Positions 11,834 through 23,234 of a stretch of 24,675 bases of DNA are shown piece after piece (position 1 is the stretch's first letter; each line of letters opens with the position of its first letter). The position numbers and the translations under genes were made by a program. Source of the DNA: Candidatus Scatosoma sp. (GTDB taxonomy: Bacteria > Bacillota > Clostridia > Christensenellales > Borkfalkiaceae); NCBI GenBank assembly GCA_045651305.1, contig JAZRSE010000151.1, positions 1 to 24,675 of the forward strand, read 5' to 3'. The notes beneath the pieces are model-generated. The model saw only the letters and a list, made by a program, of their open reading frames with translations, was not told where the DNA came from and made no database searches.

Positions 11834-12132
11834 TTTTATTTATATTTAATATATATTTAGTAGTATTATTAGTAGTAGGGTGCGGTGGAATTGTGGATAA
11901 AGAGCAAAACCCCTTTATTTTCAAGGGAAAGAGAGTATTTTTGCGGTGGACAAGTAGGTGGATAAGCCGTATAAAAAGAGTGGATAAACGGTGGAATAAA
12001 TTGTGAATAAGTGGAAAGAATCACAAACCGTCAAAAAACGAAGGTGTAATAATTATGCAAAAAAGTTTATAAAAATAAGAAAAACGTCTGTTATCCACAA
12101 AATTTATCCACAGGTGGACAAAGCTATCCACT
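11834..12132 (-). other. Chromosomal replication origin (oriC) with basal unwinding system
   Basis: The minus strand reads TTATCCACA (11900-11892), overlapping degenerate AATTCCACC, then GCACC, seven trios (+ strand TAG TAG TAT TAT TAG TAG TAG, 11858-11878) and an A/T-only run (11834-11859). Further boxes at 11945, 11957, 11979, 12002, 12091, 12104, 12113 and 12124. Same architecture as B. subtilis box6/7-GC-trios-AT. Confidence 0.85.
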
Positions 12133-12904: not shown

Positions 12905-12922
12905 CGAGGGTGTATGAGAAAG

Positions 12923-12950
12923 AAAAAGAACGGTGAAAACCGTTCTTTTT
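12923..12950. terminator. Bidirectional terminator between rsmG and the BY-kinase
   Basis: AAAAAGAACGGT-GAAA-ACCGTTCTTTTT, a perfect stem with a GAAA tetraloop. Confidence 0.85.
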
Positions 12951-12967
12951 TCATTTGTTTATACCTA

Positions 12968-13738
12968 TTAGTCTTTGGACGAATAATCGTACTTATAGGA
13001 ATAGTATTTGTATCTATCCGAGTAGTAGGATTTCTTTTCGTTTACCATATAGTCGTTTACGACGACGCCGAGGATATTTGCTTTGGCAAATTTAAGCTTT
13101 TCAATCGTTCTTGCGATATCGTTCACGTAAGAGGTTTCGTAACGGGTAACGATAACCGTACCGTCCGCTTGCGTAGCGATTGCGATTGCGTCCGAAACGA
13201 CGAGAAGGGGGGGCGTGTCGATAATAACGTAGTCGTATTGCTTTTTAAGTTCTTCAATGAACTTCGTCATTTCTTCGCTTTCCAAAAGTTCGTAAGGACG
13301 GGGCGCGTGCGTACCGCAGGTGATATAGGAAAGGTTGTTATTTTCCTTATAAACGTGCGTTACCTCTTCCAAGGACGCTTGGCCGGATAAGCAATCTGCA
13401 AGCCCGGGAACGGACTTTCTCTTGAAGAAACGGGCAACTCTGCCCTTTCTAATATCGGCGTCTACGAGCACTACTTTCGCATCGGATAACGCAAACATCA
13501 TAGCAAGGTTTACCGCAACCGTCGTTTTGCCGTCTTCGGGACAAGCGGAGGTCATAACGATAAGCGTGCCCTCGCCCGATTGTTTTTTAGGGATAGATAC
13601 GGTCAAAGAGGATTTGAAGTTACGGAACGCTTCCATAACGTTAAACGACATTTTATCGGAGAGCAGGTATTCTACACGATGAGAGGTGTTTTTGCTGCTG
13701 CTACGTACTTTTTCTTTACGTTTACTAAAAAGTCTCAT
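12968..13738 (-). CDS. CpsD/CapB/PtkA-type bacterial tyrosine kinase
   Basis: 'EAFRNF', Walker A 'PEDGKTT', A' 'VLVDADIR', B 'IIDTPP', and a C-terminal Tyr cluster YYSDRYKYYSYKYDY. Confidence 0.92.
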   Translation of the reverse strand: MRLFSKRKEKVRSSSKNTSHRVEYLLSDKMSFNVMEAFRNFKSSLTVSIPKKQSGEGTLIVMTSACPEDGKTTVAVNLAMMFALSDAKVVLVDADIRKGRVARFFKRKSVPGLADCLSGQASLEEVTHVYKENNNLSYITCGTHAPRPYELLESEEMTKFIEELKKQYDYVIIDTPPLLVVSDAIAIATQADGTVIVTRYETSYVNDIARTIEKLKFAKANILGVVVNDYMVNEKKSYYSDRYKYYSYKYDYSSKD

Positions 13739-18529: not shown

Positions 18530-18582
18530 TTTTCTTTCTCCTTAATTCAAGTATTTGTTACCCCTTTAATAGGGCGGTGCGA

Positions 18583-18888
18583 TTAAAGTTCGATTTTTTC
18601 AACTTTAACTGCGGTGAAAGGTTGTCTGTGACCTTGCTTTTTACGTTCGTTCTTCTTTGCTTTATACTTGAAGACGATAATCTTTTTAGCCTTGTCTTGC
18701 TTAACAACCGTTGCGGTTACTTTTGCAGAAGCAACTTCTGCGCCAGCTTTGATACCGTTCTCGTCGGAAACCATAAGCACTTTGAATTCCACGGTGTCGC
18801 CTTCGTTCGCCGCGAGTTTTTCTACGCGTACAACGTCGCCTTCCGCTACTTTGTATTGCTTATTTCCGTTATCGATGATAGCGTACAT
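18583..18888 (-). CDS. rplU: 50S ribosomal protein L21
   Basis: Start reset to [14 protein letters not shown] (18888) after GGAGG. C-terminal 'GHRQPFT'. Confidence 0.97.
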
Positions 18889-18894
18889 ACAATT

Positions 18895-19032
18895 TTTACC
18901 TCCTCTTTCCAGTCTCGAAGAATACCCAAGGCGCACGCTTTTCCCTCATTTTTGCGGAAAAAACGCAACTTAAAACAGCCCGTTTCTATCGGCTCGGATA
19001 ATACTATATCATATTTAGCAAAGCTCCGTCAA
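18895..19032 (-). promoter_or_regulatory. rplU promoter and structured leader (possible L21 leader)
   Basis: TTGACG (19032-19027), N18, TATAGT (19008-19003). A leader of about 110 nt contains hairpins at 18977-18994 and 18952-18968. The promoter is well supported. The L21-leader identity rests on position only. Confidence 0.4.
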
Positions 19033-19142
19033 GCATTTTTTCTTTTATTTTCCTAAAAAAATGAAAAATTTTCCCACTTGCGAGGTATTTTTCTATCCCA
19101 AAAGCGGTAAACTGTGAAAAAGCAAAAAAGGAGTGAAAAATT

Positions 19143-19589
19143 ATGGAAGAAAAAGACTTTAAGCAAACGGAAGAAATCCTTGCGGAAATTTACCGCAACG
19201 CACAGCTTGCTTTGCAATCCATTTCCAATATCCTCCCCCAAGTGGAGGACGAGGAGGTGAAAACGGAGCTTTCGCTTCAACACGAAGAATATGAAAAATT
19301 TTCCTCGCGCGCATCAATGCTTGCCAAGGATAAGGGCTTGGAATTGAAAGAGCCGAACCCCTTTAAGAAGATGATGATGTGGGGTTCTATCAAAATGAAT
19401 TCGATGATGGATAACTCCCGTGCGCATATTGCGGATATGATGTTACAAGGCACGGTAATGGGGATAACCGCCCTTCGAAAGACGCAAAGCGAAAGTTGCG
19501 TAGAGGGCGCGGACGATATTTTACAACTTTTGGACGAAATGATTGCCGCCGAAGAACGCTTTGAAAAGAAGTGGAAGGAATATTTGTAA
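19143..19589 (+). CDS. Hypothetical protein, predicted four-helix (ferritin/coat-like) fold
   Basis: 148 aa with a GGAG RBS. Amphipathic helical pattern ('IYRNAQLALQSI', 'HIADMMLQGTVMG'). Function not assignable from sequence. Confidence 0.75.
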   Translation: MEEKDFKQTEEILAEIYRNAQLALQSISNILPQVEDEEVKTELSLQHEEYEKFSSRASMLAKDKGLELKEPNPFKKMMMWGSIKMNSMMDNSRAHIADMMLQGTVMGITALRKTQSESCVEGADDILQLLDEMIAAEERFEKKWKEYL

Positions 19590-19607: not shown

Positions 19608-19677
19608 GGGATTTGCCTAATAGGCGTGAATAGACGGCGTTTCCGTCGAGATTTGCGCGATAAAGCGCGCGTTGTGG
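19608..19677. repeat. Linker-hairpin array, locus 2 left arm
   Basis: GGGATTT-[GCCTA A TAGGC]-GTGAATA-[GACGG CGTTT CCGTC]-GAGATTT-[GCGCG ATAAAG CGCGC]-GTTGTGG. Same terminus as the locus 1 left arm. Confidence 0.75.
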
Positions 19678-19687
19678 TAAATTATAA

Positions 19688-19713
19688 TAGGGACGAGCAA
19701 CGCTCGTCCCTAC
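19688..19713. repeat. GTAG-type REP-like palindrome (may also terminate the upstream gene)
   Basis: TAGGGACGAGC-AAC-GCTCGTCCCTA, an 11-bp stem. The minus strand begins GTAG. A T-tract follows. Confidence 0.6.
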
Positions 19714-19751
19714 GTTTTTTCATAACCCTAATTTTTCGCCCCAATAAAAAC

Positions 19752-19972
19752 CTTTCACTACGCCATAGGCGTAATTTCACTTTGCATAGCAAAACTACAC
19801 TATGCCCTTGGCATAACTTCACTTGTCACAAGACAAACTTCACTATGCCCTTGGCATAACTTCACTTGTCACAAGACAAACTTCACTATGCCTTTGGCAT
19901 AATTTCACTTGTCGCAAGACAAATTTCACTATACCTTTGGCATAATTTCACTTGTCGCAAGACAAATTTCAC
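19752..19972. repeat. Linker-hairpin array, locus 2 right arm (includes four 43-bp tandem units)
   Basis: Eleven 7-nt linkers (ACTTCAC/ATTTCAC, variants CTTTCAC and ACTACAC) separate ten T...A-closed hairpins. Over 19801-19972, TATGCC-NNN-GGCATA alternates with TTGTC-NCAA-GACAA. Confidence 0.92.
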
Positions 19973-21687
19973 TATATTTGCGGTTTTACCAGCACCGTCT
20001 TATAATCGGTGTAAACGACGAACCCTGCTTTGCTTTTGCTCGGTTTTTTGACAAACTTGCGCTTGCAATAGTCCACGGGTATCTTGTCGCCCTCTCTCGC
20101 TTGCGAGAAATACGCGCAAAGCTGTGCGGCGTATAAAATGGTTTCATCGCGTACCTGCCCCCCTTCTGCAAGGATAATTACGTGGGAAGAGTGGTATTTT
20201 TGTACGTGCAACCATATATCGTCGGGGGAGGCGAGTTTCAAAAGCCGTTCGTTTTGTAAATTGTTTCTCCCTACGAGAATTTTCTTGCCGTCACGCTCAA
20301 ATTCTCTAAAGGGTACGGGCGCGTCTTTTTTATTCTTTTTGACGGTTGCTTTCGGTGCGCGCAGCAGTCCTGCGTCCAAAAGTTCCGTTTCAATTTCTTT
20401 CAAGTCCTCGTCCGTTTCGGCGAGCGCGATAGAAGAGGCGATACTTTCCGCATACGAAAGCTCGTTTTCGTCCGCTTTTTGCATAGGCAGTAGAATTTCC
20501 CTTGCGCGCTTTTGTTTGTTGTATTGTTTGAAATACCGTTGCGCGTTTTTCGCAGGGGAAAGCAGGGGGTCGAGCGCGATTTTTATGCTCTTGCCCTCTT
20601 CGTCGTACCAGTTGACGAGTTCTACAAAGCGCATACCCTTTTCAATGGCGTACAAATTCGCCGTCAAAAGCTCGCCCTTGATACGGTTTTCGTCCGCTTT
20701 GTCCGCCTCGCGCAGTTTTTCCGCCGTTTCTTGCAGACGTTTCGCCGTCTTTTTCACAAGCGTTTTTACACCGCTTTCCAAACGGCGTTTTTTATCGTCA
20801 AAGCCCTTTTTCGTTTCTCGCTTGGTGTAAAATTCGTCCTGCGCTTTGCAAAGAGAGGGCATCGCCACGCCCCCGTTGATTGGAAAGGCGAAAAAGTCGC
20901 AAATCACGCCGTTATCCATACGTATATGGGGGTTAGACGGCTCGTTCAAGCAAAAATCACCGATAAAATTCCACAACGGCGCGGTTGCCGACGGGGATAA
21001 ACAAAGGGCGAGAGAGCCGTTTATTTTCTCCGCTTTTAAGACGAGTTCCCTTGCCGTGGGAAGAGCTAAGCCCGAAACGGTGTCGAAGATATGTTGCGCC
21101 AACGTTTCGCTATCCACCGCCTCTTGCCTATTTGCCATAAAGTTTTTCAAGCGCGTAAAAATTCCCTCGCTATCAAAGGGGGAAACCTTGTCTTGGGGGG
21201 TGGGGTAGGCGTACTTTGCGCCTGCAAAGAGGATACGGTGCGTATCGTCCAATAGCGCCGTCGTTTTCAACGCGCCCAAAACAACCCCTTTCTCTACGAG
21301 AATTACGTTGGAGTATTTCCCCATTAACTCGCAAACGAGGGTGCGGTTTGCGCTCGAAAAATCGGTGGTACAATGCAAATCTATTTCCACAATCCGTTCA
21401 AATTCGTGTTGACGAATCGCCAAAATTTCCGCATTTTGCAAATGTTTTCGAAGGAGCATACAAAAATTGGGCGCGACGGCAAGCGGTTCTTTTTCCACCG
21501 TGGATAAACAAACGCGCGCATTTGACGCATTTGCGCTTAAAATGAGTTTAACCGTCGATTTTCCGGTGTATATAATAAAGGTCAGCTCGTCTTTGTTCAC
21601 TTGCGAGATGCGGTTGATTTTTCCGCCGACGAGAAGGTTGTTCAACTCGATTGTGCTGCGGCGGATATGAAAAGCGTCCTGTGGCAT
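19972..21687 (-). CDS. rqcH: Ribosome quality control factor RqcH (FbpA/PavA, NFACT family), 571 aa
   Basis: Start reset to MPQDAF (21687) after GGGGAGG. 'GGKINRISQ', 'NFCMLLRKHL', 'ELMGKYSNVILV', 'NAQRYFKQYNK', 'VGRNNLQNE', 'DIWLHVQKYHSSHV'. Confidence 0.93.
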   Translation of the reverse strand: MPQDAFHIRRSTIELNNLLVGGKINRISQVNKDELTFIIYTGKSTVKLILSANASNARVCLSTVEKEPLAVAPNFCMLLRKHLQNAEILAIRQHEFERIVEIDLHCTTDFSSANRTLVCELMGKYSNVILVEKGVVLGALKTTALLDDTHRILFAGAKYAYPTPQDKVSPFDSEGIFTRLKNFMANRQEAVDSETLAQHIFDTVSGLALPTARELVLKAEKINGSLALCLSPSATAPLWNFIGDFCLNEPSNPHIRMDNGVICDFFAFPINGGVAMPSLCKAQDEFYTKRETKKGFDDKKRRLESGVKTLVKKTAKRLQETAEKLREADKADENRIKGELLTANLYAIEKGMRFVELVNWYDEEGKSIKIALDPLLSPAKNAQRYFKQYNKQKRAREILLPMQKADENELSYAESIASSIALAETDEDLKEIETELLDAGLLRAPKATVKKNKKDAPVPFREFERDGKKILVGRNNLQNERLLKLASPDDIWLHVQKYHSSHVIILAEGGQVRDETILYAAQLCAYFSQAREGDKIPVDYCKRKFVKKPSKSKAGFVVYTDYKTVLVKPQI

Positions 21688-21773
21688 AGTTGCCCTCCCC
21701 GTTTTTATCAAAGAGTATTCTTCCCTCCTCGAATTTTGTCGAAAAGCATTGACGGGAATACTCCTTTTCTTAA

Positions 21774-21802
21774 ATTATACTCCAAAAAACGGAAATTGTA
21801 AA
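21774..21802 (-). promoter_or_regulatory. sigma-A promoter of rqcH
   Basis: TTTACA (21802-21797), N17, TATAAT (21779-21774). Confidence 0.6.
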
Positions 21803-21938
21803 TAAAAACAATGAAAAAACGCTTTATTTTCTTTGATAAATATGATAAAATGTAATGAGCAAAACCGAAAACGTAGTTTTCCGTCTTGCCAAAAAATAAA
21901 AAAAATAAAAATTGCAATATAGCAGGAGAAAAAGTATT

Positions 21939-23234
21939 ATGAAGTACACCACCAAAGCCAGCGAAAAAAGCACGGTAAAAATCACGCTTAAATTCGACGC
22001 GGAAGAATTCAAAGCAGCGCAAACGAAAGCGTACCTTAAAACGAGAAACAAGTTCACGGTAAACGGTTTCCGTAAAGGTAAAGCGCCCAAGAACGTTATT
22101 GAAAACGTTTACGGCAAAGGCGTATTCTACGAAGACGCGCTCAATATTCTTTTCGGCGACAACTACGGCACGGTTATCGAAAAGTGCGAAAAGAAATTCA
22201 CGGTTGTTGGCGACCCTGACGTTTCCGTGGAAGATTTCACGGAAGAAGGCGTAACGCTCGCGGCGATTGTACCCGTTAAACCCGAGGTAAAAATTTCCTC
22301 CTACAAGGGTATGAAAATTAAGGAAATCGCGTATACTGTTAAAGACGAAGAAGTGGATGCGGAAATCAACCGTTTGCTCGACAGAAACGCACGCAAAGTG
22401 CCCGTTGCTGACAGAGCGGCTCAAAACGGCGACATCGCAAACATCGATTTCGTTGGCAGCGTTGACGGCGTAAAATTCGACGGCGGCGAAGCGGAAGGCT
22501 TTGATTTGACGCTTGGCAGCGGTCAATTTATCCCTGGTTTTGAAGACCAAGTAGTTGGTATGAACATCGGCGAAAAGAAGGACGTAAACGTAACCTTCCC
22601 CGAAAACTACCAAGCGGAAAACTTGAAAGGCAAAGCGGCGGTGTTCGCTGTTACGCTTAACAGCTTGCAAGCAAAAGAACTTCCCGAACTCAATGATGAA
22701 TTCATCAAAGACGCAACGGGCAGCGAAAGCGTAGAAGCTTACAAGGCAAAGACGAAGGAAAGATTGCAACAACAAGCGGATAGACGTGCAAACGACGCAA
22801 CGGAAAACAGCATTTTGGAAGCAATCGCTCAAAACACGGAAGTAGTTATTCCCCAAGCGATGATTGATAGAGAAATCGACACCCTTTTGCAAAAGTTCGA
22901 ATATCAACTTATGTACCAAGGCTTGAAACTTGCGGACTATCTCGACTTCCTCAAAGTTACGGAAGCTGATTTTAGAAAGAACTACGAAGCGCAAGCTGAA
23001 AAGAACGTGAAGAGCCAACTTATCATTTCGCAAATCATCAAAGACGAAGCGATTGACGCAACGGAAGAAGAAGTTGACGCGAAGATTGCAGAACAAGCAA
23101 AATCGGTCGAAAAGGACGCTGCGGAATACAAGAAGGGTATGGACCCTCGTCAATTCGACTATATCCGCAACGACATCGTTATCACCAAGCTTTTCAACTT
23201 CTTGAAAGAAAACAACGAAATGTATCAAGAATAA
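21939..23234 (+). CDS. tig: Trigger factor
   Basis: Start reset to MKYTTK (21939) after AGGAG. Ribosome-binding motif GFRKGKAP and FKBP motif 'LGSGQFIPGFEDQVVG'. Confidence 0.97.
   Translation: MKYTTKASEKSTVKITLKFDAEEFKAAQTKAYLKTRNKFTVNGFRKGKAPKNVIENVYGKGVFYEDALNILFGDNYGTVIEKCEKKFTVVGDPDVSVEDFTEEGVTLAAIVPVKPEVKISSYKGMKIKEIAYTVKDEEVDAEINRLLDRNARKVPVADRAAQNGDIANIDFVGSVDGVKFDGGEAEGFDLTLGSGQFIPGFEDQVVGMNIGEKKDVNVTFPENYQAENLKGKAAVFAVTLNSLQAKELPELNDEFIKDATGSESVEAYKAKTKERLQQQADRRANDATENSILEAIAQNTEVVIPQAMIDREIDTLLQKFEYQLMYQGLKLADYLDFLKVTEADFRKNYEAQAEKNVKSQLIISQIIKDEAIDATEEEVDAKIAEQAKSVEKDAAEYKKGMDPRQFDYIRNDIVITKLFNFLKENNEMYQE

Follow-up and report, generated by a model that had tools for sequence, protein, structure and literature searches.

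We identified arrays of short hairpins joined by a constant 7-base tag at two loci of a 24,675-nt contig of Candidatus Scatosoma sp. (JAZRSE010000151.1), namely locus 1 (1383-1618) and locus 2 (19608-19972), and we conclude with moderate confidence that locus 2, like locus 1, is made up of gene-less copies of a two-armed, modular, Gut-1-type DNA repeat centred on a gene of the PF05635 family. The whole contig (C151 of a 1.30-Mb metagenome-assembled genome (MAG) that is 76% complete) is called the window below. The features on which the description rests are the following.

1383-1486, + strand: A arm of locus 1, with five tags, four variable hairpins, a terminal hairpin and GTTGTGG
1487-1524, no strand: AT-rich spacer, the centre of locus 1; the PF05635 gene occupies the equivalent position in the gene-carrying copy (L121), as compared by eye
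1525-1618, - strand: B arm of locus 1, with four tags on the - strand and hairpins with AT-rich loops
19143-19589, + strand: 148-aa ORF, convergent with rqcH, without Pfam family
19608-19677, + strand: left arm of locus 2, with three decayed tags, three G...C-closed hairpins and an inner terminus
19608-19614, 19626-19632 and 19648-19654, + strand: left-arm tags, by sequence reading
19615-19625, 19633-19647 and 19655-19670, + strand: left-arm G...C-closed hairpins, by sequence reading
19671-19677, + strand: left-arm inner terminus GTTGTGG, by sequence reading
19688-19712, both strands: central GC-rich hairpin of 11-12 pairs, from a terminator scan
19752-19972, - strand: right arm of locus 2, with 10-11 tags alternating with two types of T...A-closed hairpin
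19972-21711, - strand: rqcH (NFACT family; Pfam NFACT_N, 349.6 bits)

Structure of the two loci and the Gut-1 match

The first-pass annotation of this DNA had described the left arm of locus 2 as a row of GTGATTT-like linkers and G...C-closed hairpins ending in the same terminus as locus 1. All of these are present, each tag being one base off GTGAWTT, the usual spelling in the genome. The terminus common to the left arm (19669-19677) and locus 1 (1478-1486) is nine bases long, and reading the two sequences side by side verified that the hairpin at 19633-19647 is identical to the one at 1408-1422 of locus 1 at 14 of 15 positions, the mismatch disrupting the innermost pair. The left arm, which starts 19 nt past the stop of the 148-aa ORF, is homologous by BLAST to about 15 other arms of the genome, including locus 1 (best E-value 8e-9, 52.5 bits). 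Chance similarity, which the annotation had allowed for, does not account for this score, as the maximum among 100 shuffles was 31.1 bits; likewise, GTGAWTT occurs 21 times in the window vs 8.0 ± 2.7 times in shuffled sequences, none of 100 shuffles reaching as high a count.

The right arm also agrees with its earlier description as a row of inverted AYTTCAC linkers (GTGAAAT or GTGAAGT on the - strand) and T...A-closed hairpins. TRF resolved it into 5.2 copies of a 43-bp unit with 90% matches and a regular period of 21/22 bp, and a spelling-agnostic array detector counted 10 linkers and 9 hairpins in it. It has the architecture of the right arm of locus 1 but no sequence in common with it, and BLAST detected no sequence homologue of it elsewhere in this 76%-complete MAG.

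The Rfam model of Gut-1 (RF01706) matches the - strand of the right arm at 19897-19974 (59.3 bits), 19854-19931 (52.0 bits) and 19747-19824 (44.8 bits). The gathering threshold is 50 bits, and the 59.3- and 52.0-bit matches both span model positions 1-77. The left arm and locus 1 had no Gut-1 match in the Rfam search, nor anything near threshold, because their tag spelling differs. When it was described in 2010, Gut-1 was known from human-gut metagenomes only, with 43 representatives and no organism, context or function (PMC2864571); Rfam types it as Gene; sRNA, and our literature search found nothing on it beyond that description. The right arm resembles Gut-1 in that the model is matched end to end above threshold, in that GUGAAAU tags separate three short hairpins, and in its setting in gut Clostridia. 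On the other hand, Gut-1 was described as a stand-alone non-coding RNA, whereas here it forms one half of a variable DNA repeat with two arms and many copies. This arm starts on a stop codon, its stems are perfect Watson-Crick helices, and the Rfam model misses the spellings of its sisters.

Locus 2 ends exactly at the rqcH stop, as the annotation had claimed, the G of the TAG (19974-19972, - strand) being a one-base overlap with the first right-arm tag. Comparison of C-termini revealed that RqcH is one residue shorter than in relatives, indicating that the array edge replaced the last codon and the native stop; the 148-aa ORF and rqcH are adjacent in relatives too. With its T run (+ strand) and T-rich tail (- strand), the hairpin between the two arms resembles a bidirectional intrinsic terminator according to the scan. 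Locus 2 looks like a composite in which the terminator hairpin separates a decayed common-type arm from a Gut-1 arm proper with the other tag spelling. This hairpin is probably the original one, with an old common-type arm and a second-spelling arm on either side, and the right arm would then have been enlarged by tandem duplication of its two-hairpin unit. Four ORFs of the window have no Pfam family at E <= 0.001, namely, that of 148 aa listed above and those at 21708-23228 (- strand, 506 aa), 18577-19056 (+ strand, 159 aa) and 12914-13390 (+ strand, 158 aa); the 506-aa ORF overlaps the rqcH start by 4 nt.

At locus 1, the inner terminus of the B arm is an inverted repeat of that of the A arm. 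Both loci had been placed between convergent genes; this stands for locus 2, and for locus 1 only across an 860-nt gap that also contains a cluster of DnaA boxes. Such clusters, counted with at most one mismatch, lie at 885-1335 (12 boxes) and 11892-12112 (six boxes), vs 3.7 boxes expected in the whole window. They are found in an origin-type neighbourhood (jag, yidC, yidD, rnpA, dnaN and gidB) in which no dnaA gene stands beside dnaN within the window, and the box order of the first cluster is kept in four relatives.

Copies in the genome and across the genus

The annotation had proposed that the two loci belong to one dispersed family whose modules are shuffled while their stems stay paired, and had called for a genome-wide count. 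Far more than two copies exist: the three-tag pattern identified 28 arms at 19 loci in the MAG, locus 1 as query gave 31 BLAST matches, and the spelling-agnostic detector found 23 arrays vs none in the block-shuffled genome. The detector's only other match, G000:C42:4634-4763, is an imperfect tandem repeat with an AGAAACG motif on the - strand; it shows no hairpin design and is probably a repeat within a coding sequence. A typical arm consists of 7-base tags (GTGAWWT), most often four, that alternate with small perfect hairpins, followed by a conserved terminal hairpin and GTTGYGG. Hairpin modules recur between loci in varying order and number, and 131 of the 147 distinct tag-flanked hairpins have perfect Watson-Crick stems, so the proposal of one shuffled family with paired stems was borne out. 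In complete copies, an A arm with GC-rich hairpin modules and a B arm with AT-rich loops face each other, separated by either about 40 or about 15 nt of AT-rich spacer, and their inner termini are mutual inverted repeats. Convergent arm pairs occur at 7 or more loci, and several copies lie at contig ends.

As the tags are strictly conserved while the sequence between them varies, as arms occur as inverted pairs, and as a regular period is seen in the right arm of locus 2, the arrays could be iteron- or centromere-like rows of duplex DNA sites, bound by a sequence-specific protein that recognises the 7-bp tag. However, tag spacing across the genome ranges from 16 to 24 nt with several modes and no single phase, at odds with constant helical phasing, and the segments between tags are perfect palindromes closed at the tags, for which a duplex-reading protein has no need; we consider this explanation improbable. 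CRISPR arrays have identical repeats of at least 23 nt, unique spacers and associated cas genes. We rejected this class since the constant part here is 7 nt and the variable parts are palindromic and turn up at more than one locus.

A preference for convergent gaps, which the annotation had taken for a trait of such elements, was not recovered: by a crude ORF-based gene call, which also predicted spurious ORFs across some arrays, the genes on either side of most copies are co-directional, and three such gaps are in an ilv/leu operon. The latter are in the genome G091 (L104, G091:C2:173800-185000), where three complete two-armed elements occupy the leuC-ilvD, ilvB-leuA and leuA-ilvE gaps and start 0-4 nt from the upstream stop. 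Since these elements are inside a co-directional operon, they cannot be strong terminators.

Relatives of RqcH identify the genus as Candidatus Scatosoma. Among the 81 genomes of this genus, 35 contain the three-tag pattern (0 to 108 matches per genome), and a reversed-pattern control had no match in any of the 81. In the order, 31 of 201 genomes have the pattern; in several of these it is a single match that forms no array, and the control also matched a few genomes. The tag spellings include GTGAATT, GTGAAAT, GTGATAT and GTGATTT. The Rfam Gut-1 model matches 42 of the 81 genomes of the genus, with up to 39 matches in one genome.

Orthologous gaps were compared, as proposed earlier, for presence/absence and target duplications. 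In a comparison that rests on other species of the genus, the closest relatives were found to be without full arrays at both window loci: the rqcH gap of the closest relative (L017, RqcH 90% identical) has a plain terminator only and is about 70 nt long vs 382 nt here, other relatives have either a three-tag array on the opposite strand or remnants in this gap, and the element is absent from the cvpA/DnaA-box gap of locus 1 in four relatives. On the other hand, no target-site duplication was evident at eight inspected junctions, whose flanks are mostly A-rich or a stop codon, and neither a transposition event nor an empty/filled pair at nucleotide resolution was seen in the copies inspected. 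For same-species sequences, exact-protein look-ups with the 148-aa ORF and ClpP as well as a degenerate 23-mer scan of metagenome contigs returned no match. The family comes and goes between species and is lineage-specific.

PF05635 genes flanked by arrays

Proteins of the PF05635 family are four-helix bundles of the 23S-rRNA-IVS or Avd-like type, with no known enzymatic activity. The single PF05635 match in this genome (G000:C133:3029-3343, 94 bits) encodes a protein of 116 aa (93.6 bits to PF05635; E-value 1e-26 to PDB 2RLD). The gene is bracketed exactly by a four-tag arm, which begins 3 nt past the fhs stop, and an opposite arm with A-type modules; both arms match the locus 1 arms by BLAST, and the neighbours are fhs and a class-I aminoacyl-tRNA synthetase gene. 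The same site and layout are found in G080, G011 and G082, with the same tag and different hairpins. At this orthologous site in four species (L121 1387-1935, L123, L134 and L132), the PF05635 gene and the tag are conserved, and the hairpins differ per species and resemble the dispersed copies of the host genome itself, which suggests concerted turnover.

Arrays flank PF05635 genes about 80 times above background: a strict array lies within 350 nt of 18 of the 36 PF05635 genes, and near these 36 genes there are 28 arrays per 23.6 kb vs one per 70.8 kb of the remaining sequence of these loci. Further arrays beyond the strict detection are visible by eye beside such genes, and Gut-1 model matches adjoin them in five genomes. 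PF05635 genes in G011, G015 and G048 have flanking arrays that, like the right arm of locus 2, combine the GTGAAGT spelling with T...A-closed hairpins; a PF05635 gene with this spelling was not found in the present, 76%-complete genome. Each PF05635 gene has its own tag spelling. The protein clades cross host families, and G233 has five PF05635 clades with five tag spellings. On the PF05635 protein tree, tag spelling takes 15 changes, which is the minimum, vs a mean of 26.8 in shuffles, none of 200 shuffles being as low; since gene and arrays are physically linked, this agreement between spelling and clade could be plain co-inheritance.

No PF05635 match was found in the array-rich genomes G091 (93% complete) and G067, so arrays can persist without the gene. 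At the level of whole genomes, PF05635 presence is weakly linked to the GTGAWWT pattern (14 of 35 pattern-positive vs 14 of 46 negative genomes), a count that is confounded since the pattern misses other tag spellings. One PF05635 clade (L144, L145 and L146, that is, G063, G046 and G065) is without tag-hairpin arrays and has a different flank design: at all three loci, TTCACT-type words in short runs stand on the flanks together with a conserved hairpin. At one or more of these loci, L145 among them, a tRNA-like sequence lies beside the PF05635 gene.

As a tentative proposal, to which we give somewhat less than an even chance, PF05635 proteins may be sequence-specific partners of Gut-1-type arrays, each clade reading its own 7-base tag beside a hairpin, in single-stranded DNA or in RNA. 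The gene and its arms would then form a previously unrecognised small mobile or self-maintaining element, whose gene-less arms would litter the genomes of gut Clostridia. PF05635 has been described as functionally uncharacterised (PMC11270868), and its occurrence in rRNA insertions as well as in cas loci is on record (PMC11270868, PMC3936711, PMC10910872); our literature search found no paper linking it to flanking hairpin arrays.

The first-pass annotation had compared the loci to REP/BIME elements and had suggested a search for a trans-acting HUH (Y1/RAYT) transposase. The likeness is real in several respects: both are short intergenic hairpin repeats with a conserved motif beside the stem (5' of each hairpin, like GTAG in REPs), inverted in arrangement, lineage-specific and present in tens of copies, and in both one copy surrounds a gene. 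However, REP/BIME elements (REPINs) have one conserved palindrome, whereas in the arrays here hairpins that differ from one another follow in direct rows, with a constant 7-mer between them, and the gene flanked is the PF05635 four-helix bundle, not a Y1 transposase. The partner itself did not materialise: neither the present MAG (76% complete) nor G091, which is 93% complete and has 69 pattern matches, gave a PF01797 match, PF01797 occurs in 11 of the 35 array-positive vs 19 of the 46 array-negative genomes of the genus and thus does not track the arrays across the 81 genomes, G059 has six PF01797 matches and no arrays, and no transposase is present among the genes seen between neighbouring elements (ilv/leu biosynthesis genes). 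Mobilisation in trans by a Y1 HUH (RAYT or IS200-like) transposase is therefore very improbable. A PF00078 reverse transcriptase was not found in four of five array-rich genomes (G000, G091, G067 and G080). A diversity-generating retroelement (DGR; Avd plus RT plus TR/VR) was rejected, as no reverse transcriptase adjoins the Avd-like gene in this genome.

Under the reading that we favor, the dispersed copies look like the gene-carrying element with its gene deleted, as MITEs relate to their parent, the gene-less two-armed copies having both arms in common with the single gene-carrying copy. No target-site duplication was evident at the junctions inspected. The copies differ from MITEs in that the parent-like copy (G000:C133) encodes only the PF05635 protein and no recognisable transposase, and in that the arms are modular and change their content rapidly. 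As in rRNA intervening sequences, a PF05635 gene sits between inverted structured repeats; unlike those and Avd genes, it is not inside an rRNA gene and has no reverse transcriptase or DGR context.

Proposed action at the DNA level and possible roles as RNA

Mismatched pairs inside the stems are few, with three internal G:T vs six A:C among about 776 stem pairs and hence no G:U excess. The near-perfect stems, unlike those of structured RNAs and without strand bias, argue that the palindromes are maintained, or formed, as DNA. Arms also abut stop codons: 19 of 53 arms begin between -4 and +5 nt relative to where a long ORF on the same strand stops, and in six arms the TGA inside the first tag is the stop codon of such an ORF. 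Since every tag contains TGA, a tag is able to supply a stop codon. Arms that begin at stop codons are transcribed, and such arms may thus have a role as RNA. We found no promoter-like site in front of the right arm of locus 2, and a shared terminator stands downstream of both arms; beginning on the rqcH stop, without a promoter and with a terminator after it, the right arm fits a 3' UTR or a read-through transcript.

These observations bear on the explanation that the arrays act as RNA, that is, as Gut-1-type structured 3' UTR or intercistronic elements or as small RNAs, whose single-stranded tags bind a protein or shield the upstream mRNA from exonucleases, the many copies being a recruited useful module. 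Besides the shared terminator and the above-threshold Gut-1 score, it draws on the rating of Gut-1 as certainly RNA by Weinberg et al. 2010 (PMC2864571), on the fact that the tags read in the same sense as the upstream gene, at whose stop a third of the arms begin, and on the strong folding of both arms of locus 2 relative to shuffles (z = -7.6 for the right arm and -3.4 for the left). However, G:U pairs are not favored over A:C, unlike in typical structured RNAs, every element has a second arm on the opposite strand, the tags are constant while the hairpin content is replaced even at orthologous sites, the same genes occur without arrays in close relatives, and an own promoter was not found. 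We judge a role as RNA to be unlikely as the explanation of the family, though clearly less so than duplex binding sites.

For the PF05635-centred repeat, we propose that the family acts at the DNA level, where it would land at or on the stop of the upstream gene, swap hairpin modules between copies and amplify locally. Copies may spread by an active mechanism that uses single-stranded hairpin DNA, and the PF05635 protein may recognise the tag plus the hairpin.

In practice, these arrays break MAG assemblies, and their position on stop codons and inside operons matters for annotation and possibly for mRNA fate. The orphan motif Gut-1 is now placed in a named genus, as one arm of a fast-changing, many-copy DNA repeat, and is tied physically and phylogenetically to PF05635, itself an unexplained family with members in rRNA intervening sequences, cas loci and diversity-generating retroelements. 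If PF05635 proteins are indeed the partners of the arrays, an orphan Rfam motif would acquire a function, and so would a widespread uncharacterised protein family, including its ORFs inside rRNA intervening sequences and cas loci.
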